From the IMG/VR virus record IMGVR_UViG_3300027708_000019: a DNA stretch of 64,000 bases; one strand, given 5' to 3'. A program made the position numbers and the translations under genes. Position 1 is the stretch's first letter. Every line of letters starts with the position of its first letter. The notes under the pieces were generated by a model that worked only from the letters and a program-made list of their open reading frames with translations, had not been told where the DNA came from and did not search any database. The stretch comes from a virus. Positions 1 through 19,847 of the stretch are shown here, piece by piece.

Positions 1-602
1 AAAATGCACTTGGTTGCGTTGCTCGTACTAATGCTTTTGCTGCTGACCAATCTGTTCAAGGTGGTGCAGTTCCAGGTGATTATGTTGCTACAAATTATGA
101 CAAAGGACATATGGCTCCAGATGGAGATTTGTCTTGGGATCCGCAAGTAGAGTATGAATCTTTTTTGATGACCAATATGTCACCCCAAGCTGGCTCTTTG
201 AATCGTGGCATATGGAAACTGTTAGAGACCTCTGTAAGAGGATGGTCCGTTCAAAGAAACCAATCGTATACGATTTATGTTGGAGGCATCTATGGTGCGA
301 CTGACAGAAAAATTGGTAATGGTGTTATCGTTCCTCATGGGTTTTATAAAATTGTAATTAACAATCAAACCAATGAAGTTGCTGGTTGGTCATTCCCTCA
401 TGTACCACCATACCCAAATTTGGGTAACGACTTACGTCCTTTCCGCAAACCAATCGCTGATATTCAGAAAGAAGCTGGTGTTAAATACGCATTCCCAGCT
501 GGCGCAATCGAACTTGCTCCAGGAAAAGAATGGCCAGTTGATTTTGGTGCACTAACAAAAGCAAAACGTGCTAAGTGTGGTGCAGGAGCAAACGATGACT
601 AA
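1..602 (+). CDS. DNA/RNA non-specific endonuclease (NucA/EndoG-like), 5'-truncated by window edge
   Basis: YDKGH just before track ORF start, then TNMSPQ..LNRGIW..LE and VPHGFYKIV motifs. Confidence 0.85.
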   Translation, partial: NALGCVARTNAFAADQSVQGGAVPGDYVATNYDKGHMAPDGDLSWDPQVEYESFLMTNMSPQAGSLNRGIWKLLETSVRGWSVQRNQSYTIYVGGIYGATDRKIGNGVIVPHGFYKIVINNQTNEVAGWSFPHVPPYPNLGNDLRPFRKPIADIQKEAGVKYAFPAGAIELAPGKEWPVDFGALTKAKRAKCGAGANDD

Positions 603-945
603 AATTATCACAGCTTTAGTTGTACTTCAGATTGCTGCTTGTTCAGTAATCTTACCAATACCACATGATCCAGTTATGTTTGGATATTTGGTTGATACAA
701 AAATTGCTGTAGATAGATTAAGTTGTGATGAGAAAACATGGGCATGGGAAACTGCCCAATCTCAAATCGAGAGATTAAAAGTTTATTCAACTCTAAGGCA
801 TGACCCACAAGCAGAAGCAGCAGTAAAACTTGAAAATGCTATTAAGAAAGCAAAAGATTCAAATAATAAAACATTCTGCGAATCAATTCTTAAACTTAAT
901 AAAACACGTATCGACGTAATTGTTGATGCATGGAAGGGAAGATAA
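595..945 (+). CDS. putative lipoprotein
   Basis: ATG at 595; hydrophobic signal ending in IAAC lipobox-like motif. Confidence 0.55.
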   Translation: MTKIITALVVLQIAACSVILPIPHDPVMFGYLVDTKIAVDRLSCDEKTWAWETAQSQIERLKVYSTLRHDPQAEAAVKLENAIKKAKDSNNKTFCESILKLNKTRIDVIVDAWKGR

Positions 946-946
946 A

Positions 947-1180
947 ATGTTAGAGCAATTAAGAGAAACAGCTGGACTTGGTGGTCCAGCTGCAGGATTA
1001 GCAAATGAGTTATTGGTTCTTCAAGATCAATTTACTTCTGGTCAACTTACTAGAGAAGAGTTTGAATTTTTGGTTTCAGAAATTGCAAATATTCGTGCTC
1101 AGCAAGAGTTAGCATCTGATGAAATGGCTTGTCGTTTCATTATAGAATCAGCAAAGAATATACTGTCGATGGTAGCGTAG
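947..1180 (+). CDS. hypothetical protein
   Basis: ATG at 947 right after upstream stop; tightly packed in operon. Confidence 0.6.
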   Translation: MLEQLRETAGLGGPAAGLANELLVLQDQFTSGQLTREEFEFLVSEIANIRAQQELASDEMACRFIIESAKNILSMVA

Positions 1181-1181
1181 A

Positions 1182-1937
1182 ATGAAAAAATATCGCTCAA
1201 TTTTTATTAGCGATGTTCATTTAGGTACTCGTGATTGTCAAGCTGACAAACTGAATAATTTTTTAAAGCACAACTCCTGCGATACTTTATATCTCGTAGG
1301 AGATATTATTGATGCTTGGAAAATACAACAAAATAAATGGCGATGGAAACAATCACACTCGAACGTCGTACGTAGAATTCTTGGTCACGCCAAACGTGGA
1401 ACAAGAGTAGTTTATGTAGCAGGTAATCATGATGAATTCCTAAGACCTATGATTCCGTATGGTTTCAGCTTCGGTCTAATTGAAATAAAAAATCAAACAG
1501 AACATATTGGTGCGGATGGTAAGCACTATCTAATCACACATGGAGATTTGTTTGATGGTATCACAAGACTTGCTCCATGGCTTGCATTTCTTGGTGATAA
1601 ATTATATGACTTGGTTCTTGATTGGAATTCAAGTTTTAATTGGATTCGTCACAAATTTGGATTTGGGTATTGGTCACTATCAAAATACTTGAAACATAAA
1701 GTTAAGAAGGCATCTGATTTTATGTTTCAATTTGAACGTAATCTAGCAGGTTATTGTAAGAAACGTGGCTTCGATGGTGTGATTTGCGGACATATTCACC
1801 ACGCTGAAATAAAAGAGATAGATGGTGTTATATACATGAATGACGGAGATTGGGTTGAGTCATGTACTGCTCTGGTTGAGCATTATGATGGCAAGTGGGA
1901 AATAATTACATGGACTAAGGAGAATGACAATCCATGA
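1182..1937 (+). CDS. PlcP/LpxH-like calcineurin-type metallophosphoesterase
   Basis: SDVHLG, GDIID, GNHDE, HGD, GHIH motifs; C-terminal NDGDWVES. Confidence 0.85.
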   Translation: MKKYRSIFISDVHLGTRDCQADKLNNFLKHNSCDTLYLVGDIIDAWKIQQNKWRWKQSHSNVVRRILGHAKRGTRVVYVAGNHDEFLRPMIPYGFSFGLIEIKNQTEHIGADGKHYLITHGDLFDGITRLAPWLAFLGDKLYDLVLDWNSSFNWIRHKFGFGYWSLSKYLKHKVKKASDFMFQFERNLAGYCKKRGFDGVICGHIHHAEIKEIDGVIYMNDGDWVESCTALVEHYDGKWEIITWTKENDNP

Positions 1938-2674
1938 TAGAAGATAAAGTAACAATTGTAGTTCCTTGTAAAAATGAAGAGAACTACATTCCTCATCTAT
2001 TGTTGCACTTGCGCCAGCAAGAAGGTATTGGTAATACAAGAATCATTATCGCAGACTGTTCTACAGATAATACACGAGAAGTCATTCAAGTTATGAGAGG
2101 TAACTTGAATGTGGAAATTATTGATGGTGGTCCAGTTTCTATTGCTAAAAACAATGGAGCAAAGTTAGCTACTACTCCATATGTTTTATTCATTGATGCA
2201 GATGTGCGATTCTTCAGTGATACAGTTATCCGTGATACTGTAGAAGAATTAGAAAAAAGAAATTTGGATCTTATTGGTTTGCGTATTAAATGCTATGATA
2301 AAGATAAAAGAACGCAGATTGGATTTATGCTGTTCAACGCAATCAATATTGTTATGAGTAAGAAAGTGCCATTCGCTGTAGGTGCATATGCTCTTACACG
2401 AAAAGATAAATTTTACGAGTATGGTGGTTTCGCTGAAAAGTATGGAACGAGCGAAGACTTTTTCTTGTCTAAGCAGTACGATCCTAAAAAATTCAAATTA
2501 GTAAAGCACTACTTCGGACAAGACAGTCGAAGATTCAAGCGAATGGGTTACACTGGTATGGCAATGTATCTTGTCAAGAATTTCTTAAATCGAAATAATG
2601 AAAGATACTGGAATAACTTAGATTATTCTAAGTACTGGGATACTACCAAGACCCATCGTCAATCACAACACTAA
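1934..2674 (+). CDS. glycosyltransferase family 2
   Basis: IVVPCKNEE, DCSTDNT, FIDAD (DxD), SED motifs. Confidence 0.85.
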   Translation: MIEDKVTIVVPCKNEENYIPHLLLHLRQQEGIGNTRIIIADCSTDNTREVIQVMRGNLNVEIIDGGPVSIAKNNGAKLATTPYVLFIDADVRFFSDTVIRDTVEELEKRNLDLIGLRIKCYDKDKRTQIGFMLFNAINIVMSKKVPFAVGAYALTRKDKFYEYGGFAEKYGTSEDFFLSKQYDPKKFKLVKHYFGQDSRRFKRMGYTGMAMYLVKNFLNRNNERYWNNLDYSKYWDTTKTHRQSQH

Positions 2675-2825
2675 TCCCAACAAACAATAGTGTCAATTTA
2701 CAGAACCATGATTTTGGTCCCATAATTTCATCACGACCACTTGCCCACCCCAATCTCCAGTGGAAGGGGTTAACTACTATCGTGATGAAAACACCTGAAT
2801 ATTGAATCCATTTTGCTATTTTCAT
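2643..2825 (-). CDS. small hypothetical protein
   Basis: ORF coupled to clpP stop. Confidence 0.5.
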   Translation of the reverse strand: MKIAKWIQYSGVFITIVVNPFHWRLGWASGRDEIMGPKSWFCKLTLLFVGISVVIDDGSW

Positions 2826-3385
2826 TAATATAAATCCTTAACTTGATCACAAATCCCCAGTTTTAGTGCTTCTTTTGCACTCAACCAAACATCCTGAGGT
2901 GGGAGAAGTTTCTCACGGATAGATGGCTCATCTAGACCTGTGCACTTTTTATAATGTAACATAAGTCGTTTGGTTGTTAAATCATATTCTTTTACCGTAG
3001 CAATAAGTTCATGTTCTTTTCCGAACGAACCCCAACTATATTGATGCGATAGAATTGATGTATTTGGTGTAAGCAGACGATGTCCTTTCTCACCAGCAAT
3101 AAACATCAATAATCCAGCAGATGCAATTTGTCCAAGCCCAATAGTTCGGATTGGCGTAGCACTGCCTTTCATACAATCAATGACTGCGAAGGCAGCATTA
3201 AGATCGCCACCTGGAGAACAAATTACAAGATTAAGTAAATCGTATTGTTCTTCGCCCATGTTACAAGCAAAAATCCACTCAACAATCTGCCTACATGAAG
3301 TCATAGTAACTTCGTCCATAAATAGCAGAAAATTTTGTTTCGGGGCATTACCTGCATTCAAATTGATATTAAGTTTTTCTGTCAT
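2825..3385 (-). CDS. clpP: ATP-dependent Clp protease proteolytic subunit
   Basis: SPGG, GQIASAG (catalytic Ser), HQ, LSAKEALKLGICD motifs. Confidence 0.88.
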   Translation of the reverse strand: MTEKLNINLNAGNAPKQNFLLFMDEVTMTSCRQIVEWIFACNMGEEQYDLLNLVICSPGGDLNAAFAVIDCMKGSATPIRTIGLGQIASAGLLMFIAGEKGHRLLTPNTSILSHQYSWGSFGKEHELIATVKEYDLTTKRLMLHYKKCTGLDEPSIREKLLPPQDVWLSAKEALKLGICDQVKDLY

Positions 3386-3923
3386 TTATTGTAATCACTT
3401 TCGGGTCAGTATAAAAAATATGTCTTCCAATTTTGGTAGTTTTTTGTAACTTTGACCATCCTGGAGAGACATAGTCGGCATGATAATATATAGCACCCTT
3501 TGTTACATCATCAATAACTTGATAGTTGAAGTAAACATAAAGTGCCACTTGTCTTACATCATTATATAATTCTTTCTGTGTTGCTGATACAGCTTTCTTA
3601 CCTTCACAAAACCAAGTGAATTGGCACGTTGATTTTACTTTTTGTTTAACAACTCCGCAGACGCTGTCTTCAAACACGTTTGATTTGACACGATTTAATG
3701 TAACCAAACCTACTGCAATTTTGCCAGTCTCTGGTTCATAACCTGCTTCGTAAAATATATTATCTGTTAAACAGTCAATTTCCTTCTTCTCTTTTGCATT
3801 TAGATGTGTATATGGAACATCTACAATCTTTGTTCCTGCTTTTGAATTTTGCGTTGCGGTAAACAACAGTGCAACAAATAATATAATTGTTATTAAAATT
3901 GAAATTAGATATTTCAAAATCAT
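3369..3923 (-). CDS. cell wall hydrolase, SleB/Hydrolase_2 family
   Basis: N-terminal TM; CLTDNIFYEA, LNRV, CQFTW, YYHADYVSPGW, IGRHIFY. Confidence 0.88.
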   Translation of the reverse strand: MILKYLISILITIILFVALLFTATQNSKAGTKIVDVPYTHLNAKEKKEIDCLTDNIFYEAGYEPETGKIAVGLVTLNRVKSNVFEDSVCGVVKQKVKSTCQFTWFCEGKKAVSATQKELYNDVRQVALYVYFNYQVIDDVTKGAIYYHADYVSPGWSKLQKTTKIGRHIFYTDPKVITINDRKT

Positions 3924-3976
3924 CTCCTTAATTAGTTAAAGAGTAAGGGTGATGAAACCCCTACTCCAATCCCATA

Positions 3977-4261
3977 TCAGGTGGACTTCTTGATAGTAGT
4001 CTTTTCTTGTGTAGTTTGTGGGGATACGTTAGAAACAAAACCATTCAGCGTTTGTGCTTTGCTGATGATATCATTTTCTGATGGGAAGGCAGGGAATCCT
4101 GGATGATCAGGAATCGTGCCACCATTTAGTTTAGCAGATTCGACTTTCGTTTGCCAGTCGTTGCTAATTTGTTCACGTTTGCCGTAGTACTCATCGCTGA
4201 GCATATCTTTGGCCATTTTTAAAAGTTCGAGACGAATCTCAAAAGGTGTCATATTTGACAT
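3977..4261 (-). CDS. conserved phage hypothetical protein (MSNMTPFEIRLELLKMA type)
   Basis: AAGGAG RBS; TAAATA late-type promoter upstream. Confidence 0.7.
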   Translation of the reverse strand: MSNMTPFEIRLELLKMAKDMLSDEYYGKREQISNDWQTKVESAKLNGGTIPDHPGFPAFPSENDIISKAQTLNGFVSNVSPQTTQEKTTIKKST

Positions 4262-4338
4262 AGTTTTCTCCTTGTGTTGTGTGTAAAAAAATCAAATTGT
4301 GTGTTCATGATATAGACTATTATTTAGTCAAATGTGAT

Positions 4339-4368
4339 ACTGGGAAGACGAATCTTCCCAGTTTTTTT
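4339..4368. terminator. intrinsic terminator-like hairpin
   Basis: ACTGGGAAGA-CGAA-TCTTCCCAGT followed by T run; UUCG loop on minus strand; lies just after porin stop. Confidence 0.65.
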
Positions 4369-4373
4369 ACGAA

Positions 4374-4940
4374 TTAAAACGATCTAGTATAAGATACGTA
4401 TGTTCGATTAAAAGCATTATCACCATTTACATCATCATAGCCAAGAGAGATACTGTCTTTCTTGGTAATAGCATAACCCAATGAGTAACGAATTGAGTTT
4501 GTTGTATCTGATTTATCAGAAGCAAATGCTGTACGGAAACGATAACCAAGTTTAGCAGTCAAACCTTCAACTGGAGTTTTAACAATAACTCCTGGCTCTA
4601 CTGAGTAGTAAGCGAAATTCTTACCACCAGTAATACGCTCACCAACAGCACCACGTGCGTAACCAGTAATAAAGTTATCACCGATCAATCCCATTTTGCC
4701 TGTAACACCAGCTTCATAACGTGAGGAAACTGTATTTGCAGAATCAGTAGCTGTGTTTAGAATGCTAACATCACCATCGATTTGTTTTGTTAGAGATGTT
4801 TTAACATCTAACTTGTACACATCACTCATGGCTTTACTAGAATCTGCTTCTTGACGTCCATAAGTTACTGTTGCTGAAGTGTCGGCGAATGCCATTGAAG
4901 ATGCAGCGAGCAATGCTGCTGCGATTAGTTTTAATTTCAT
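4374..4940 (-). CDS. outer-membrane beta-barrel / porin-like protein
   Basis: Signal peptide (AFA), alternating amphipathic strands, C-terminal YxxxF BAM signal. Confidence 0.7.
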   Translation of the reverse strand: MKLKLIAAALLAASSMAFADTSATVTYGRQEADSSKAMSDVYKLDVKTSLTKQIDGDVSILNTATDSANTVSSRYEAGVTGKMGLIGDNFITGYARGAVGERITGGKNFAYYSVEPGVIVKTPVEGLTAKLGYRFRTAFASDKSDTTNSIRYSLGYAITKKDSISLGYDDVNGDNAFNRTYVSYTRSF

Positions 4941-4972
4941 GTAATATCCTTTAAAAATTCAAAAAACAAAAT

Positions 4973-5272
4973 GGCAGGTTCTTCTGTTACGAGGTGAACC
5001 TGCCGAAACCCTAAGCAGTGTTTAGGCTGCTAATGCGTAGACAGAGTCGTTTGCATTTACTTTTTTTATGCGATTTACAGTCGTCATCTACTGTGTTGCC
5101 GTCTCTACTATCTCACCCTGTCGAAACCTAGTCACCCCCATCAAAAGCACTTCTCGTTTTACATTCCCCTGAATACATCATTTCTGGTTCAGCTAATACG
5201 CAAATGCTTTTGGTGGAGGTGGGGAGAATCGAACTCCCGTCCAGAATGCCTTCGCTTTGAAGGGATTACAAC
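4973..5272 (-). ncRNA. ssrA: tmRNA, circularly permuted two-piece form
   Basis: Acceptor piece with T-arm GGGAGTTCGATTCTCCC ends CACCTCCACCA at 5211; intervening segment 5140-5210; coding piece starts GGGGGTGA..TTTCGAC at 5139; G3-U alanine pair; tag ORF 5022-5054 = ANDSVYALAA*. Confidence 0.93.
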
Positions 5273-5274
5273 AA

Positions 5275-5406
5275 TTACTTAACTGCTTGAGTGTGCTTGT
5301 GTTTCAAAGACTTCTTAAGCAGTTTCATCCAAAACTTCTTAACCTTGTCTGCTTTATGCTCGACTTCGGCTTTGTTTAGTTTTAAAATTAGTGCCTTAAC
5401 TTTCAT
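5275..5406 (-). CDS. small basic protein (43 aa, MKVKALILKLNKAE...)
   Basis: Manual translation; ATGA overlap with upstream gene stop. Confidence 0.55.
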   Translation of the reverse strand: MKVKALILKLNKAEVEHKADKVKKFWMKLLKKSLKHKHTQAVK

Positions 5407-5744
5407 TGATTCGGTACCAATACTTGTCTGTAGCAATTACAGTATGCGTCAAGGATATTTTCATAATGATAGCCATACGGCATTGCTGGTTGTTGATAGA
5501 TTACCTGTGGTGGCATTTGTTGAACCACAACAGGTGGTTGTTGAACCACAACAGGTGGTTGTTGAACCACAACAGGTGGATAATAATATGGCTGAGGACG
5601 ATGCAACTCATAACCAATAATACCACCAATAATAGCTGGACCAACCCAACCAACATGACCACCACCATACCCACGTCCTCCATGGGCGAATGCTTGACCA
5701 CTGATGCTTAATGCAGCAATAAGAACCAAAACGAACTTTTTCAT
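5403..5744 (-). CDS. exported Gly/Pro/Gln-rich protein
   Basis: Signal peptide, glycine-zipper-like segment, PPVVVQQ repeats, AGGAG RBS, own promoter. Confidence 0.7.
   Translation of the reverse strand: MKKFVLVLIAALSISGQAFAHGGRGYGGGHVGWVGPAIIGGIIGYELHRPQPYYYPPVVVQQPPVVVQQPPVVVQQMPPQVIYQQPAMPYGYHYENILDAYCNCYRQVLVPNQ
5517..5579. repeat. 21-bp coding tandem repeat x3
   Basis: TTGTTGAACCACAACAGGTGG unit encoding PPVVVQQ. Confidence 0.9.
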
Positions 5745-5770
5745 TTTACTCTCCTAGTTTCCATAATATA

Positions 5771-5799
5771 ATTATACCTGAAAACGGAATTAATGTCAA
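5771..5799 (-). promoter_or_regulatory. sigma70-type promoter
   Basis: TTGACA-N17-TATAAT; TATAAATA late-type motif adjacent at 5804-5811. Confidence 0.85.
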
Positions 5800-5806
5800 G
5801 CACTAT

Positions 5807-6364
5807 TTATAACGTGGAACCACCTACAGGACGATTGCAAGCGCACAATTCGCCAGTCTGCAAGGCATCCAGAATTCGAAGAGTCTCATCTGGGCTTCTG
5901 CCTACATCTGTGTTGTTTATCGTCATGTGTTGAATTACATTTGCTGGGTCAATAATATATGTAGCTCTGAATGCACAACCTGTCAAATCGTTGAATGCAC
6001 CAAGTTGGTTAATTAACCCATCTGTCCATTCATTGTTCTCATTTCTAAACATGTTTCTTACTGTGTCTGCAAACATCCAACTCTTTAGATTTGTCAAAGT
6101 CATGTCCGCATTTTTCCAAGCAATTTTACAGTATTCATTATCTGTACTACCGATAAGTAATTCTGCATCACGTTTTGCGAATTCGTCATGTAGATTATCG
6201 TATCCAACAATTTCTGTTGGGCAAACAAATGTAAAATCTTTTGGATAATAAACAACGACTTTCCATTTTCCTGGAAAAGATTGTTCATTAATCTGTTCAA
6301 ATGTGTTGTCTGGTTTAACACCAACTAACACAAATGGATCTAATTGTTGTCCTAGCATTTTCAT
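5807..6364 (-). CDS. ahpC: 2-Cys peroxiredoxin (AhpC)
   Basis: YPKDFTFVCPTEI, GRSPDETLR, GELCACN. Confidence 0.9.
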   Translation of the reverse strand: MKMLGQQLDPFVLVGVKPDNTFEQINEQSFPGKWKVVVYYPKDFTFVCPTEIVGYDNLHDEFAKRDAELLIGSTDNEYCKIAWKNADMTLTNLKSWMFADTVRNMFRNENNEWTDGLINQLGAFNDLTGCAFRATYIIDPANVIQHMTINNTDVGRSPDETLRILDALQTGELCACNRPVGGSTL

Positions 6365-7011
6365 ATTTTGTAAGTCTCCTTATATGTCTTTCTCAATTCA
6401 ATAAATTTTCCAATCCACTCATCACGCTTTTCATGGAACACTAATGTTTGTTGTCCATCGACAGCCATAATAATAATTAGATTGGGAACTGAAACACCAG
6501 TTCGTTCTTCAAATGCAACAGCATACGCTGAGCATTGCATAAAATACCCATGAATATCGTCACGAGATTTCATTCTTGCTGAAGTCTTAAAGTCAATTAC
6601 TGCTTTCTTACCATTGTATTCTGCAATACAATCTACCGTTCCAGCCACTTCTAAGTGGTCAGAATATAGTGGCGACTCCAGCGCACATACGTTGTTTATT
6701 TTTTTGAGTTCTGGTAATATCTCAACCCAAGTTTCGTAGTCAACGAGATTTGGTTCAACATGTTCATTATTGAGATATGTTTCGCAGAGGGAATGAACTC
6801 TGGTTCCACGCTTTGCTGCTTTGGTGCTGATTCGATTGGCTTCTTCGTTTCCGACTCTGTTTCGCCATGCGATGATTGCTTCTTTGCCAAGCAATCCTGT
6901 AACTGTGGTGACGGAAGGATAGCGTTTACCCGACGGAGTTTCATATAGTCTTCCGTCGGGAGTATCGATGCGTGGTAGTTTGTGTAAATCATAATGTAAA
7001 TGAGTAATCAT
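6361..7011 (-). CDS. PD-(D/E)xK exonuclease (T4-like phage exonuclease)
   Basis: YPSVTT, RGTRVH, AGTVDC, IDFKTS, QCSAYA. Confidence 0.85.
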   Translation of the reverse strand: MITHLHYDLHKLPRIDTPDGRLYETPSGKRYPSVTTVTGLLGKEAIIAWRNRVGNEEANRISTKAAKRGTRVHSLCETYLNNEHVEPNLVDYETWVEILPELKKINNVCALESPLYSDHLEVAGTVDCIAEYNGKKAVIDFKTSARMKSRDDIHGYFMQCSAYAVAFEERTGVSVPNLIIIMAVDGQQTLVFHEKRDEWIGKFIELRKTYKETYKI

Positions 7012-7012
7012 A

Positions 7013-7636
7013 TTAGTCCATAGTTTGAATTGCAGCCTTACATGCGTGGAAATGATTAATGCGATCTGCTAATCCAATTTCACCACCATTGATTTTATGT
7101 GTCAATGTTTTCATGTCCTCTTGGTCAGCCCAAGTATTTAAATTATTTTTCCACCAGAACCATGCAGCTGACATAGCAGCACCTTCATATGTTTCTAGAT
7201 ACTCAACAGCTTCGTCAATAGTTAGACCAAGATCTGCTGCAAATGATTCATAGTTATTTTTACCAGTCAATTGAATTAATCCACGACCACGGTATTTGAA
7301 ACCATCACCAGATTCTTCATCGCCATTACCCATGCGATTAGCATAGACACGATTTGCGATTGCTTCTGGATTGCGTTCGTATGGTTGAGCAGCTTCTAGT
7401 GTTGGGAAATACTTATGGAAAGTACCAACCAAACCTTGTGCGCCATAATTCAAATTTTCTTTAACAGCATTGAAACCACCTGACTCATGACCAACTTGTG
7501 CTAAGAAACAAGCAAGTCTTGATGTTCCAGTAATGTCATATGTTGTGCAAGCAGTAGTTAAACCCTCAACGAAACCTTGTAGTTTCTCTGGCTTTGTTTG
7601 TGGTGCGATCGTTTGTAATAGTTGTAAGGTGATCAT
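7013..7636 (-). CDS. glycoside hydrolase family 19 endolysin
   Basis: FLAQVGHES, ENLNY, YRGRGLIQLTG, INGG. Confidence 0.88.
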   Translation of the reverse strand: MITLQLLQTIAPQTKPEKLQGFVEGLTTACTTYDITGTSRLACFLAQVGHESGGFNAVKENLNYGAQGLVGTFHKYFPTLEAAQPYERNPEAIANRVYANRMGNGDEESGDGFKYRGRGLIQLTGKNNYESFAADLGLTIDEAVEYLETYEGAAMSAAWFWWKNNLNTWADQEDMKTLTHKINGGEIGLADRINHFHACKAAIQTMD

Positions 7637-8400
7637 CTCTTATCCTCGTAATCTTCGTATTTTAATTTAGCCAAGATATAATCTTTGACTAGCGATGAGC
7701 GAACAATGTCATCTACGGTAAATTCAATTCTAGTAAATGCTTTCATGTGTTGGGCAATATCAAAGAATTTTAAAATACCACTAACATCGGTCTTACGTTT
7801 ATTTAGGTCGGTCTGACGATAGTCGCCACACCAAATAATTTTAGACATATGTCCAACACGTGTCATAACAGTATCAATCTCATCATAATTTAAATTCTGC
7901 ATTTCATCAACGATAATGATAGCGTTGTCGAAAGACATACCACGAATAAATGAAGTAGAAATAAATTGAATATAACCTTGCTCTTCCAATCTATCCCATG
8001 CATCCTTACGATCAAATAACTGATGGCAAATCTGACGATAGGGTTGTTCGTAGATTTCCATTTTCTCACCAACATCTCCTGGTAGATGTCCCATTTCTCG
8101 AGACTGTACCGCAGAGCGAACAACAATAATTTTATTGAATGGGTTACTTTTATCTAACACTTCTTCGATTGCTTTGTATAAAGCAATAAAAGTTTTTCCT
8201 GTTCCTGCTACACCATGTAATGCTATAAAATAATCACCTTGTTTATATGCGTCGAAGAATCCTTTTTGATTTGATGTTAATGGCTGAAAAGTTTTTAAAT
8301 TATCTAATCTCAGCTTTAACTGATTACTCGCTACTGGTTTGGTTTCACGTTCTTCATAATGTATGTCTACTATTTTCTTAGCTGCAGAAGTGCGTGCCAT
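7633..8400 (-). CDS. phoH: PhoH-like ATPase
   Basis: GVAGTGKT, GHLPG, RGMSF, DEMQN, GDYRQTD, DIVRS. Confidence 0.92.
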   Translation of the reverse strand: MARTSAAKKIVDIHYEERETKPVASNQLKLRLDNLKTFQPLTSNQKGFFDAYKQGDYFIALHGVAGTGKTFIALYKAIEEVLDKSNPFNKIIVVRSAVQSREMGHLPGDVGEKMEIYEQPYRQICHQLFDRKDAWDRLEEQGYIQFISTSFIRGMSFDNAIIIVDEMQNLNYDEIDTVMTRVGHMSKIIWCGDYRQTDLNKRKTDVSGILKFFDIAQHMKAFTRIEFTVDDIVRSSLVKDYILAKLKYEDYEDKR

Positions 8401-8419
8401 TCGTATTTCCCTATTTTTG

Positions 8420-8647
8420 TTAACGAATATTGTCCTTTAAAGTGCTTCCTGGCATACTGCCATGAATTTTTTGAAGGACATCTCTAAACCCTCCAGGAAG
8501 TTTTGGTGTATCGCGAACTAATGCTGGCGCACCAATAACTGATTCCATGTGTGGGTTTTCTTTTAGAAATTCTTCTCGCTGAGACCAACTCATAAACTTC
8601 TCAGTGATCTCTTCGGTTTCTTTATTTTTAAAGACGTATGTAGGCAT
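8420..8647 (-). CDS. small conserved phage protein (FmdB-like N-terminus without Cys)
   Basis: MPTYVFKN start; CTAAATA upstream. Confidence 0.6.
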   Translation of the reverse strand: MPTYVFKNKETEEITEKFMSWSQREEFLKENPHMESVIGAPALVRDTPKLPGGFRDVLQKIHGSMPGSTLKDNIR

Positions 8648-8651
8648 ATTT

Positions 8652-9335
8652 TTATTTAGTCAGGTAAGTGCGATTTAGCATAGTATGATTGTGGTCAGTT
8701 GGACCCCAATCGCCATCTGGGTGATAAGCCAAAACAACCATCTCTTGTCCAGTTGTGACAAATCTATGTTTCTCTTGTTGTTCTATACAGAAAATAGCAC
8801 CAGTTTCTAATTGAATACTTGTTTCTGTGATGTCACCATCATCATTTTTCCAAGGATTGATTGTAGCATAACCAGTTCCTCTCACAACTATACCAAATCT
8901 GATACTTGGGTGTGTATGATAAGACTGCTCAGTACCTTTCGGAAAATGTAACATATTCAATGATGGATCACCAAGTCTTGATGGATAGATTAGCAATGAA
9001 TCTGAACATCCATCAATGTATGATAGACGACCACGTTCTTCTAGTGGACCACCAATTATATTTTGCCCACGATATCCGATGCGTGTAAACACAGCAACCT
9101 TACCTACGTAAAATAGTTTTTCATGATCATGTGACCAGTAACAGAAATAATCTCCCTGCGTAGCAACTTTACCATTTGGGAAATTAACATCGCCTTCGAT
9201 CACATAACCATAGATTGTTGAATACTCTTTTGTATAAAAATATCCTTGGTCACCAATTTCATTAATGTCAAAAAGATTCGCAATAGATGGATACATAGTA
9301 TCAGATCTATCGATATATGTTTGTCCAGTAATCAT
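8652..9335 (-). CDS. cupin-domain protein
   Basis: HTHPSIRFG..GTG and HRF motifs. Confidence 0.7.
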   Translation of the reverse strand: MITGQTYIDRSDTMYPSIANLFDINEIGDQGYFYTKEYSTIYGYVIEGDVNFPNGKVATQGDYFCYWSHDHEKLFYVGKVAVFTRIGYRGQNIIGGPLEERGRLSYIDGCSDSLLIYPSRLGDPSLNMLHFPKGTEQSYHTHPSIRFGIVVRGTGYATINPWKNDDGDITETSIQLETGAIFCIEQQEKHRFVTTGQEMVVLAYHPDGDWGPTDHNHTMLNRTYLTK

Positions 9336-10453
9336 ATAAAAGAGTTATCCTTAATCAAAAATAGTTGTGGGTCCAGTTTGTCATGATAATTGTAGTTTTC
9401 ATCAATCGCAAACTTCATTGGTTTGGCATAACAGATACTGTTGAGATTATTACTGTCTACCTTATTTGTTATATAGTCGTTATCGTATAAATCCAAAATA
9501 TATTCTTTGGCTTGTGGCTTTCCTTCAAGTTTATTGTGATTGTTCATTGCCCATAATTGAAACACATCACTAGTAAAGAAGCCAATATAATTTTGTTCTG
9601 GAAATAATGTATCAGTATGTTCAGCAAAAGCAAGTAATCTTGTATAGGTTTTATCCCAACGCAAACACATATATAACCACCAGAAAAAATCTCTAAGATT
9701 TGTCAACTCAACAGGAGATTTAGCAGCAACCTGTTTCATGTAACCAATTAGTTTCTCTGTTTCTTCCTGTTCTCTAAACATATAATCGTCTTTTGTGTTT
9801 AGAAGAATCATTAAGTTATCATCTGTTACTGGCATTACCAAATCTCTCTCATCATACTGAGCAAGTTTTGTTGACCCAAAAATCTCATCGCCACCATGAC
9901 CAAATACGCATACATAATCTTCGCGACCAAGATAGTGTGAAAACAGAATCGATGGTAGTGACAAAAATTTACCAAGTATATTATCTTGATAAAACTTCTC
10001 TTGTAATGCAGTTTCTGATGTAGCGATGTAGATATCTCTACGTTGCGATATTGTTGTGTTCTTAATAAAGGCAGTTACCATTGCGGTACTGTCAATACCA
10101 CCACCATAAAACAGAATCAATTTTTGATTTGGCTTTAAATTTGATAGAATTAGTATTGCTCTGGCATCACAACATTCTTCAAATGTGTAAGAAACTTTAG
10201 TGTATTCAGGAAGTGGAGAAATTGATGTTGTGTTGAATGGTGTTATCAAAGTATTTGTTCTGTCATGAACAGCACCATTGCCACCAAAGTAGTAAGAAAA
10301 TTTATAGAAGTTTTCCATTCCTGGAAAATTTGGGAACATAGATTCACTGAAGAATTTATGTTTTGTTATGTGGCGATTGATACCATAGTTATAGTAACGT
10401 GTGTCATAGAAAACTTCAGCAGTGTTCAAAAAGATCAGTTTAGAAGTTTGCAT
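9332..10453 (-). CDS. asparagine-synthetase-like PP-loop ATPase (paralog 1)
   Basis: YGGGIDST PP-loop and GHGGDEIFG motif; no N-terminal Cys glutaminase domain. Confidence 0.6.
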   Translation of the reverse strand: MQTSKLIFLNTAEVFYDTRYYNYGINRHITKHKFFSESMFPNFPGMENFYKFSYYFGGNGAVHDRTNTLITPFNTTSISPLPEYTKVSYTFEECCDARAILILSNLKPNQKLILFYGGGIDSTAMVTAFIKNTTISQRRDIYIATSETALQEKFYQDNILGKFLSLPSILFSHYLGREDYVCVFGHGGDEIFGSTKLAQYDERDLVMPVTDDNLMILLNTKDDYMFREQEETEKLIGYMKQVAAKSPVELTNLRDFFWWLYMCLRWDKTYTRLLAFAEHTDTLFPEQNYIGFFTSDVFQLWAMNNHNKLEGKPQAKEYILDLYDNDYITNKVDSNNLNSICYAKPMKFAIDENYNYHDKLDPQLFLIKDNSFI

Positions 10454-10976
10454 AAAGGTAAGACTCTTTTATCAGTTTATTATATGTGTCGTTTACTTCA
10501 ATCAAAGAAGCGCACTCTTTAATTTGTTTTGTAAATCTGTATTTGAATCTTTCGATTTCTTCTTTTCTACTGTTAGTAAAAGAATTAGATTTCCAGTTCC
10601 CATTCTCTGCACCAATTTGATCAAATTCAGCATCAGTCATTTTATATAACATATCAAGGCAAGCTGCTTTCTCGCTGAGGATTACCAGTCTATACATCTC
10701 TTGATTGTTTCTGACATTTCTTCTTGTGATTACACCTGTGTTTAATTTAAACACAAAACCATGAGGTAGGTTTGGATTGCAATCTAATGGGAGTTTGTGA
10801 TTCGTGTTGATATTTGTCCACAATTTTGTATTGTGATCCATCATATTGGTAACAGTCTCTAAATGGTTTGAAAGGCAGATAAATCTGCCAGTATTTGCTT
10901 CAAGTACAGCGTGTATTTTAGAAGACTTGTTAATTATATTTGGAATTAAATTATAATTTTCTAGTTCATACTTCAT
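10440..10976 (-). CDS. hypothetical protein, partner of PP-loop enzyme 1
   Basis: Overlaps both neighbours; likely start MKYELEN. Confidence 0.6.
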   Translation of the reverse strand: MKYELENYNLIPNIINKSSKIHAVLEANTGRFICLSNHLETVTNMMDHNTKLWTNINTNHKLPLDCNPNLPHGFVFKLNTGVITRRNVRNNQEMYRLVILSEKAACLDMLYKMTDAEFDQIGAENGNWKSNSFTNSRKEEIERFKYRFTKQIKECASLIEVNDTYNKLIKESYLYANF

Positions 10977-11508
10977 TAGCAATCCAAGATGGTTGTTCAC
11001 GATTTTTCCAAGAGAACATTCTTTGTTTGTCCCCAAGGTAGTAATTCATATAAGATTTTATTGAATTACCAGCTACTTTGTATTTATCTGGCATCGCAGG
11101 AGTTGGTTCAGTAAACTCGCCTTTTGGAATTTTATAAGGAACACGACGAAGTGGAATTATCAATTTCTCACATGCGTGTACCTTGTTATATCGATAAGTG
11201 TATTCATCCATCAATTCACGCCACATCACATAGAGCCAATCATAATTTTTATCAGATTTCCTTACCCAAATAGCGGAAGGGTGATTGATATGGGTAGCAC
11301 TATACAAAATGCCATCACGATTGTCAGAAAGTTCATATCGTGTCTGTTTTCTTCCAGATTTAGATAGACCAACAATTTGTATACCATCAAGAACACGATG
11401 AGCAGTAGAAAGAAGTTGTGCATATTCTAGAATCATCTTTACGCAGTGTTTATCGACATGCATTTCTGCACAGGTTTGGGGATCATTATCAAGATAAAAA
11501 ATATTCAT
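10966..11508 (-). CDS. pyrimidine-dimer DNA glycosylase-like protein (DenV-related family)
   Basis: MNIFYLD, DKHCVKMILEYAQLLSTAH, THINHPS. Confidence 0.75.
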   Translation of the reverse strand: MNIFYLDNDPQTCAEMHVDKHCVKMILEYAQLLSTAHRVLDGIQIVGLSKSGRKQTRYELSDNRDGILYSATHINHPSAIWVRKSDKNYDWLYVMWRELMDEYTYRYNKVHACEKLIIPLRRVPYKIPKGEFTEPTPAMPDKYKVAGNSIKSYMNYYLGDKQRMFSWKNREQPSWIANEV

Positions 11509-12014
11509 TTCTTTATAATTTCTTCAAGAGCAGTTAATTGTAAAATGAGATTATCCAAACGCATCAGAGTTGTGTCAATATGTTTATCATTATGAAGAAT
11601 ACCATGACCACCTTCTTTATCAAATGGTGTAATGCAACCAATTGAGTCATCAATTAGAATTGAAGTTGATGTTGCGTATTCTGCTTTTTCCTCTTTGCTT
11701 CGAACGAAATTTGCTTTATATGGAATGTTATGTTTTTTCAACCAAACAAGTTTTTGACGCTTGGCTTCAACACCTTGAGAAATATCATGCGTTCCCATTG
11801 AAGTTAAAATCTCAACGCGAATTTTACCTGTTAGAGATGCGACATGCCTTAGCAATCTATTTGCGTTTGGCATAGGATCTAACTTCTCAAAGATCTGATG
11901 TTCCATAACTGAAGAACGAAACTTCTTTCGATCTTCTTTATGTGGGTCGTACTGCTTATACTCTTTGTCAAAGTCAGCAAGTACACCATCCATATCCAAA
12001 TATAACGTAATCAT
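11505..12014 (-). CDS. 5'(3')-deoxyribonucleotidase, HAD family
   Basis: YLDMDGVLADF, ILIDD motifs. Confidence 0.8.
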   Translation of the reverse strand: MITLYLDMDGVLADFDKEYKQYDPHKEDRKKFRSSVMEHQIFEKLDPMPNANRLLRHVASLTGKIRVEILTSMGTHDISQGVEAKRQKLVWLKKHNIPYKANFVRSKEEKAEYATSTSILIDDSIGCITPFDKEGGHGILHNDKHIDTTLMRLDNLILQLTALEEIIKK

Positions 12015-18901: not shown

Positions 18902-19566
18902 AACAGATCTCCTGTTGTGTCCTCTTCTTCATCAGGATAGTGTTTAACTTCCCATTTGAGAACTGCTAAATCTTGTTGCACCTCAGTGTCAATCCAACCT
19001 TCATTTCCACTGCAGTACCAATCAAGATAATCACCAGTACACAGAATATCAGCAACAAGACCGCCAGTTGATCTCCAGCTGTAGCTGATTACTTGACCAT
19101 CTTTGTGTAGTTGATTGTTGCACAATGTAGAATAGAAACGCTTGCAATAATCTTTGCTAGTGCGCATCTTAAGTTTGATTGTTGTGCTATCTTGAATATC
19201 TCTAAACAAATTGATACGATTGTTATCTACATGGTCAGTGTCATCCTCAACAAAAGATTGTTGTTTTTCTTTCGCCTCAGCCATTTCTTGATAGAATTTT
19301 TCCATCCACTTTTCGCGATTACGAATTCCCAACTTAGATTTGATGACATCAAAGAAACTTAGAAATTGTTCAAACTGCTCTTCTTCAAAAAACATTTCAG
19401 TTTTATTGAATTTCAGTTTACCTTCTTTGTCATGGCTTCCCAAAATAACATGTGTCAAACCATGACCAATCTCAAATACATTTACGTAAGTGATTGTATC
19501 GCCATGATCGATTTCAAGGTGTTCGTGTAGGGTGTTATCAAGTTCAGATTGGAATTGATTTAGCAC
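18898..19566 (-). CDS. hypothetical protein
   Basis: GTG start with AAGGAG RBS; SWRSTGG..GDYLDWYCSG. Confidence 0.7.
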   Translation of the reverse strand: MLNQFQSELDNTLHEHLEIDHGDTITYVNVFEIGHGLTHVILGSHDKEGKLKFNKTEMFFEEEQFEQFLSFFDVIKSKLGIRNREKWMEKFYQEMAEAKEKQQSFVEDDTDHVDNNRINLFRDIQDSTTIKLKMRTSKDYCKRFYSTLCNNQLHKDGQVISYSWRSTGGLVADILCTGDYLDWYCSGNEGWIDTEVQQDLAVLKWEVKHYPDEEEDTTGDLF

Positions 19567-19693
19567 GATGTTTCTCCTTACGTTTATATTGCTTCTTACT
19601 TAACTCAACTCTTTGACGATATTTTGATGTGCGCAGATCTTTAGCAATCCAATTTCTTGGCTTACTTGACTGTATAACCAGCGTGCATTCCAT
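19544..19693 (-). CDS. ArfA-like alternative ribosome-rescue peptide (49 aa)
   Basis: Manual translation MECTLVIQSSKPRNWIAKDLRTSKYRQRVELSKKQYKRKEKHRAKSIPI; N-x-I..L..YRQRVE..KK..YxRKxKH resembles ArfA core. Confidence 0.6.
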   Translation of the reverse strand: MECTLVIQSSKPRNWIAKDLRTSKYRQRVELSKKQYKRKEKHRAKSIPI

Positions 19694-19847
19694 ACCCATC
19701 ATCGTGTCCCTTTGCGTAATGAACAGAAGTCAGTGCTCTTAGAAACTCTGACAACTCCTTATATTTTACCTCGCCCAAGGTATTTTCGTCAAGTCCTAAA
19801 ATCGAAACTATTTTAGAACAAGCATGATCAACCTCATGCGGATACAT
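19662..19847 (-). CDS. hypothetical protein
   Basis: Likely start MYPHEVD. Confidence 0.55.
   Translation of the reverse strand: MYPHEVDHACSKIVSILGLDENTLGEVKYKELSEFLRALTSVHYAKGHDDGYGMHAGYTVK

Follow-up and report, generated by a model that had tools for sequence, protein, structure and literature searches.

Does a short stretch on the minus strand of an uncultured virus encode a complete ribosome-rescue RNA, and if it does, how might a phage use it? The question arises at positions 4973-5272 of the 64,000-nucleotide stretch of IMG/VR virus record IMGVR_UViG_3300027708_000019 that we analysed (hereafter the window), where a sequence-only reading had proposed a phage-encoded, circularly permuted two-piece tmRNA. 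We found that the minus strand of this record carries, at ~5273-4961, a complete circularly permuted two-piece tmRNA (ssrA) gene. The sole gene that ARAGORN reports in the 64-kb window is a permuted tmRNA, placed at 4931-5303 (minus strand) and bearing the tag ANDSVYALAA*. Two Rfam covariance models also match the locus over their full length: RF01850 (beta_tmRNA) with 151.9 bits against a cut-off of 84 (E = 9.8e-47), and RF04321 (tmRNA_permuted) with 147.9 bits against a cut-off of 47 (E = 3.1e-29), with no truncation. These scores are far beyond chance, and apart from the tmRNA locus no Rfam family matched the 64-kb window at gathering score. The interval 4973-5272 suits the RNA well, with the 3′ end better moved to ~4961 to take in a run of T nucleotides. 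The parts of the gene, given in the order in which the minus strand presents them, are:

5211-5273 (minus): acceptor piece, made up of helix 2 strands, T-arm, acceptor 3′ strand, discriminator A and encoded CCA
5273-5269 and 5248-5242 (minus): helix 2 strands of the acceptor piece, TGTTG and CATTCTG
5238-5222 (minus): T-arm, GGGAG / TTCGATT / CTCCC
5221-5215, 5214 and 5213-5211 (minus): acceptor 3′ strand CACCTCC, discriminator A and encoded CCA
5210-5140 (minus): intervening segment of 71 nt, between the CCA end at 5211 and G1 at 5139
5211-5205 and 5149-5143 (minus): stem closing the intervening segment, AAAAGCA paired with TGCTTTT
4961-5139 (minus): coding piece, made up of acceptor 5′ strand, helix 2 strands, small hairpin, tag frame, and terminal hairpin with T-run
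from 5139 (minus): canonical tmRNA 5′ end, GGGGGTGA
5139-5133 (minus): acceptor 5′ strand GGGGGTG, pairing with CACCTCC into a 7-bp acceptor stem with G3.U70
5120-5114 and 5098-5094 (minus): helix 2 5′ strands of the coding piece, CAGGGTG and CAACA
5093-5078 (minus): small hairpin of the coding piece
5022-5054 (minus): tag frame, with resume codon GCA (5054-5052), the ten codons ANDSVYALAA and stop codon TAA (5024-5022)
5004-4996 and 4981-4973 (minus): terminal 9-bp hairpin, GGCAGGTTC paired with GAACCTGCC, with a 14-nt loop and a T-run at 4971-4961

The architecture thus agrees closely with what had been read from the letters. The permuted order (acceptor piece, spacer, coding piece) is seen on the minus strand and is also flagged by ARAGORN; the T-arm, CACCTCC and the ACCA ending at 5211 are each in the place proposed for them; the 5′ half begins at 5139; the 71-nt segment is closed by AAAAGCA/TGCTTTT as described; and the G3-U pair and the complete tag ANDSVYALAA* are present, the latter identical to the tag that ARAGORN returns. 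The resume codon GCA is preceded by U at -5 and A at -4, bases that matter in E. coli tmRNA. The terminal hairpin and its T-run are likely the 3′ end or terminator of the gene; our terminator scan, with a loop limit of 8 nt, overlooked this hairpin with its 14-nt loop. In both phage and bacterial beta-type genes, this loop (4982-4995, minus strand; consensus CCTCGTAACAGAAT) is better conserved than its own stem, a pattern that points to a tertiary contact or a site of protein binding rather than to a simple terminator loop.

If the gene matters to phages, its structure should be preserved among viral relatives. We scanned IMG/VR viral contigs with a degenerate pattern that describes the junction of permuted genes and recovered at least 120 stretches; ARAGORN finds a permuted tmRNA in 114 of the 120 listed, nearly all with AND...LAA-type tags and LAA-type degrons. 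Among these 120 matches, the exact tag ANDSVYALAA occurs in at least four loci, and ~50 of the loci listed can be aligned over most of the tmRNA gene. One element of the sequence-only reading has to be abandoned here, namely that such RNAs are uncommon in phages: they are published in aquatic myophages (PMC9004378), abundant in IMG/VR, and present without annotation in cultured Pseudomonas phages.

An alignment of 37 distinct sequences (A1; window 4931-5303 and 36 viral loci, mean column identity 57%) allowed pairing to be counted on the structure carried over from the Rfam alignment (48 pairs). Across the 37 homologues, 88.5% of cells are paired, compared with 77.5% after shuffling (none of 500 shuffles comes as high), and sliding the partners by 1-3 columns lowers pairing to 41-55%. 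Double-sided changes occur in 28 of the 48 pairs. Both the T-arm and the acceptor stem stay paired in 37/37 homologues, and the G3.U pair never varies among them. Pairing reaches 99.6% in helix 2a, where 4/7 pairs covary, and 97% in helix 2d. In helices 2b and 2c only about half of the homologues match, since the family has two helix-2 types and the structure string used for the counts fits only the type found in this window's gene. For the stem that closes the intervening segment the figure is 94% (4/7 pairs covary), and 8/9 pairs covary in the terminal hairpin. The T-A-A at -5, -4 and -3 ahead of the resume codon and the GCAAA with which the frame starts are likewise invariant in all 37. The compensatory changes in the helices imply long purifying selection. 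The phage gene is intact and under selection and is almost certainly functional.

The DNA around the gene, as judged by its gene content, is that of an uncultured T4-like phage. The window encodes a T4 gp43-type DNA polymerase (phrog_262, E=0), ribonucleotide reductase, tail-fibre-like proteins, PhoH, a cell-wall hydrolase, an AhpC-like peroxiredoxin and a ClpP-like peptidase, has a GC content of ~37% and carries almost every gene on one strand. Judged by the polymerase, its closest relatives in culture are T4-like cyanomyophages, with ~55% amino-acid identity; megablast of window positions 1-12000 against 50,697 phage records gave no match. Many viral contigs in IMG/VR, 100-170 kb long, carry homologous gene blocks. 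The polymerase, ribonucleotide reductase, PhoH and these homologous blocks uphold the earlier claim that the tmRNA is phage-encoded. The flanking features that concern us are:

5771-5799 (minus): predicted promoter TTGACA-17-TATAAT, sigma-70-type consensus (12/12), ~500 nt upstream of the tmRNA
5403-5744 (minus): ORF113, 113 aa, between promoter and tmRNA
5275-5406 (minus): ORF43, candidate of 43 aa, whose ATG overlaps the ORF113 stop (ATGA)
4374-4940 (minus): secreted protein of 188 aa with a signal-peptide-like N-terminus, directly after the tmRNA
2825-3385 (minus): ClpP-like peptidase, 1.6 kb downstream of the tmRNA on the same strand (PF00574, 98.6 bits)

Searching the 120 viral loci listed with the window's neighbouring proteins (tblastn) revealed a recurrent block consisting of PhoH, a GH19-like protein, a PD-(D/E)XK nuclease, the tmRNA, a variable secreted protein, o94, the cell-wall hydrolase and ClpP. 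Among the matches listed, 53 loci extend at least 3.6 kb downstream of the tmRNA, and of these the hydrolase is kept in 47/53, o94 in 33/53 and ClpP in 22/53; on the other side, where 82 of the listed loci reach 1.5 kb or more upstream, 50/82 keep the nuclease. This fixed place in a conserved phage block indicates that the tmRNA is inherited within phages and is no stray host fragment.

The same observations bear on the possibility that the gene is a passenger without present function, either a host gene captured recently or what is left of an integration site in the host ssrA. Such an origin has precedent, as tmRNA genes often serve as integration sites and leave fragments in prophages, according to passages in PMC4383910 and PMC9004378. 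Here, however, the gene is complete and occupies a fixed position within a block that lytic-type T4-like phages conserve, no integrase was seen among the neighbouring genes scanned, and its compensatory changes imply selection over a long time. Moreover, the closest bacterial sequences match the phage gene in conserved cores only, at 73-84%, while viral relatives among the matches listed reach 92% identity across 307 nt (locus L071, the closest). We therefore regard a functionless passenger as very improbable.

Some details of the neighbourhood vary. Example loci with the conserved block around the tmRNA are the aquatic T4-like contigs L071, L098, L019 and L065, to be compared with window span 2825-8400; the window differs from the block in that the AhpC-like gene and two small ORFs are inserted ahead of the tmRNA. 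The 188-aa secreted protein has a homologue in 13 related loci among the matches listed, and many others have a gene beginning MKK... at that place. ORF113, ORF43, o94 and the 188-aa protein match no Pfam or PHROG family.

How would the RNA be produced? The 5799-5771 promoter, which lies between the AhpC-like gene (5807-6364) and ORF113, is likely the start of the tmRNA-bearing transcript, to judge from its consensus sequence. ORF113 has a single, partial tblastn match among the 120 viral loci listed. The ORF43 stop codon TAA lies 1 nt ahead of the first paired base of the tmRNA; this frame belongs to no family and has no homologue among the 120 viral loci listed, and may therefore be spurious. 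Many relatives in alignment A1 instead have a TATAAT-like box immediately ahead of the acceptor piece.

The intervening segment contains no ORF and has a predicted fold of -25.5 kcal/mol (z = -3.0). Three unrelated spacer types, that of the window included, each fold into a hairpin stacked on the acceptor stem. Such an arrangement fits the maturation of permuted tmRNA by tRNA-processing enzymes, which has been published (PMC11915505), and the covarying spacer hairpin is an indirect hint in favour of the predicted processing model for two-piece tmRNA. The spacers also reveal that different parts of the gene have different relatives. L059 and L081 resemble the window gene at 93-95% in the spacer and at only 40-47% in helix 2, whereas L052, L120, L005, L086, L001 and L066 have helix 2 in common with it at 100% and the spacer at 18-35%. 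L019 and L003 have a tag frame that is 100% identical, and share neither spacer nor helix 2 with it. Since spacer, helix-2 type and tag frame are thus common to different relatives, the parts have been shuffled by recombination, resulting in a mosaic gene.

Together with its identity, we propose for this phage permuted tmRNA that it performs ordinary trans-translation with host factors during infection, a reading to which we assign a probability of roughly 80%. Its expression, processing, charging and tagging, which we infer from the sequence, would proceed as follows. One precursor, which would also include one or two small ORFs ahead of the tmRNA, would be transcribed from the 5799-5771 promoter, probably early. 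In this precursor the 71-nt segment would form the hairpin stacked on the acceptor stem and would be removed by the tRNA-processing enzymes of the host, with RNase P cleaving at G1 and 3′ trimming back to the encoded CCA. Two products would result, the acceptor piece with ~63 nt and the coding piece with ~175 nt, which the acceptor stem and helix 2 would keep joined. The G3.U pair and the discriminator A should direct charging with alanine by host AlaRS, and the charged RNA, with host SmpB and EF-Tu, would enter ribosomes stalled on broken mRNAs, which can be expected to be plentiful where a T4-like phage degrades the mRNA of the cell. Translation would then resume at GCA and append ANDSVYALAA, freeing the ribosome, and the ALAA degron would hand the tagged protein to proteases of the ClpXP type, among them perhaps the ClpP that the phage encodes. 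We know of no phage tmRNA with a demonstrated benefit to the phage.

A partner protein on which this reading depends is SmpB. In tblastn searches with two bacterial SmpB queries, nothing below E ~1 appeared in the 64-kb window or in the 120 viral loci listed, and the nearest virus record (G001, 62% complete) gave no tmRNA or SmpB match. The phage tmRNA therefore presumably relies on host SmpB, and its function hinges on compatibility with that protein. The same dependence could be turned to a different end: the RNA might act mainly as an inhibitor or decoy that titrates host SmpB or blocks host trans-translation, an effect reported for the TLD-only RNA of mycobacteriophage DS6A. With no phage SmpB found here, the phage RNA must indeed compete for that of the host, and inhibition of tmRNA in E. 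coli by a TLD-only molecule from a phage is cited in passages of PMC4131195 and PMC11915505. Yet a decoy needs no tag frame, and diverged homologues have conserved the frame of 10 codons, its ALAA ending and the context of its resume codon. As both the tag frame and the helices are maintained, a decoy is improbable, and the same maintenance weighs against a relic.

Elsewhere in the window, a 52-aa ORF (19544-19702, minus strand) was considered as a possible ArfA. Its Pfam search returned only DUF7230, at 25 bits (cut-off 27), and no ArfA, and NCBIfam gave no match. A second rescue route through this ORF was discounted for want of an ArfA match.

Ordinary trans-translation could also be refined in a manner compatible with it. 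The tmRNA, the phage ClpP and a host ClpX-type unfoldase might together constitute a tag-and-degrade module, which would recycle truncated host proteins into amino acids. The ClpP-like gene, lying only 1.6 kb downstream on the same strand, encodes Ser, His and Asp residues that align with the catalytic triad of solved ClpPs; among the matches listed, 22 of the 53 related loci have ClpP no more than 6 kb downstream; the tag ends in the ALAA degron; and recycling of amino acids has been proposed for phage Melnitz (PMC9004378). A phage ClpP is thus a possible partner for degrading tagged proteins. On the other hand, among the matches listed ClpP is not nearby in 31/53 loci, whereas the hydrolase is kept in 47/53. 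As ClpP is kept less often than the hydrolase, its linkage to the tmRNA may be plain inherited synteny. In addition, ClpX, ClpA and SspB were not found among the ORFs scanned near the tmRNA, and the ClpP-like protein, scoring far below the NCBIfam equivalog cut-offs, is a divergent member of its family. A dedicated module is conceivable but rather doubtful. The frequent presence of a nearby ClpP nevertheless offers a simple hypothesis for culturable relatives.

Phage tmRNAs have appeared in lists since at least 2014 (PMC4131195), and Buchholz et al. 2022 reported a two-piece tmRNA behind an early promoter in Melnitz, a myophage of OM43 (Methylophilales). Of the 133 unique phage tmRNAs that they counted, 53 have the two-piece form, and 50 of those come from aquatic phages (PMC9004378). 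The window gene is therefore one more well-documented example of an already published class, which the present search shows to be large. Its likeness to the Melnitz and pelagimyophage genes extends to a complete permuted gene in an aquatic T4-like myophage, an early-type promoter ahead of it and no integrase nearby, and the same roles have been proposed, namely that the RNA keeps ribosomes free and marks proteins to be recycled. There are also differences. The Melnitz unit contains a glutamine riboswitch, whereas no Rfam element adjoins the window's tmRNA. The Melnitz gene was grouped with alphaproteobacterial ssrA, whereas the window gene scores best with the beta model. The neighbours differ as well, with PD-(D/E)XK upstream and cell-wall hydrolase and ClpP downstream in the window. 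Finally, blastn of the window locus against the 50,697 phage records recovers neither Melnitz nor any T4-like isolate, which indicates a large distance between the sequences.

What that blastn search does recover is matches to the acceptor piece only, in Pseudomonas phages. Samunavirus UF_RH6 (OQ383211), a siphophage of P. aeruginosa, resembles the window's phage in having a permuted phage tmRNA, with an acceptor piece that is 81% identical. It differs in being a 93-kb siphovirus with the tag ANDTSFDVRLAA, and only its acceptor piece is detectably similar. RF01850 is the sole tmRNA-clan model reported above its cut-off in UF_RH6. P. aeruginosa, the host of UF_RH6-type phages, itself has a one-piece tmRNA. 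The UF_RH6 tmRNA (L314 1483-1903; RF04321, 118.8 bits) is unannotated and partly overlaps 'hypothetical protein' calls, and other cultured P. aeruginosa siphophages that match the acceptor piece are SM1, PaMx31, PA_L9 and FBPa45. Phage permuted tmRNAs, those of cultured Pseudomonas phages included, thus escape ORF-based annotation. The one-piece phage tmRNAs of the mycobacteriophage Bxz1 group and Bacillus phage G (PMC4131195) are likewise phage-encoded ribosome-rescue RNAs, but have the standard gene order. Huge phages carry tmRNA together with SmpB (PMC7162821); their tmRNAs are of standard order, some accompanied by SmpB, whereas no SmpB was found in the searched DNA of the window's phage.

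From which tmRNAs, then, does the phage gene derive? RF01850 is the best clan model for the window gene and for all 17 phage genes that pass any clan cut-off (19 sampled, with varied tags). The betaproteobacterial two-piece tmRNA was described by Sharkady and Williams 2004, as cited in a passage of PMC9004378. The window gene resembles this type in gene order, in the helices of the RF01850 model, in the style of its tag (ANDxxFALAA or YALAA) and in the loop of the terminal hairpin. It differs in scoring 152 bits, compared with 313 bits for an Azonexus gene, and in missing the last hairpin of the RF01850 model. The intervening segment is 71 nt long in the window and 23-44 nt in the bacterial sample, where the lengths in the phage and the bacterial sample are each bounded by the gap range of the search pattern.

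A scan of bacteria with the beta-type junction pattern, using one genome per species, returned mostly Rhodocyclaceae (Azonexus/Dechloromonas, Thauera, Azoarcus, Accumulibacter and Propionivibrio), with tags such as ANDERFALAA. Among 401 genomes drawn from the order of these Rhodocyclaceae, the best matches are G069 and G249, which have a GC content of 40-44%, a size of ~2 Mb and a permuted tmRNA. That of G069 is taken to be native, since G069 has no standard tmRNA. In an unrooted FastTree tree of ~130 core positions, composed without alpha or cyano sequences, the phage genes fall into two groups apart from the Rhodocyclaceae. Extra bacterial copies from Cupriavidus and from G341 lie near or within the phage groups in this same short tree, which gives a hint rather than a placement. 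These relationships could mean that phage permuted tmRNAs are a long-lived viral lineage of their own, as opposed to the outcome of recurrent capture from hosts, that swaps modules by recombination and has possibly seeded the extra bacterial copies of Cupriavidus, Herbaspirillum and G341, a scenario that we consider unlikely. Its boldest form, if true, would have the betaproteobacterial two-piece type descend from a phage gene that displaced the host's.

The bacteria with a standard tmRNA and an extra permuted one are Cupriavidus (L176, L206 and L185), Herbaspirillum (L174) and G341 (L258). The tag of the extra Cupriavidus copy, ANDEKFALAA, is the commonest tag among the phage genes. In one of the Cupriavidus loci (L176), one flank is ordinary chromosome (LysR, enolase-like and TctC genes), and the other consists of small ORFs without assignment, a DUF2726 protein and a transposase-like HTH protein.
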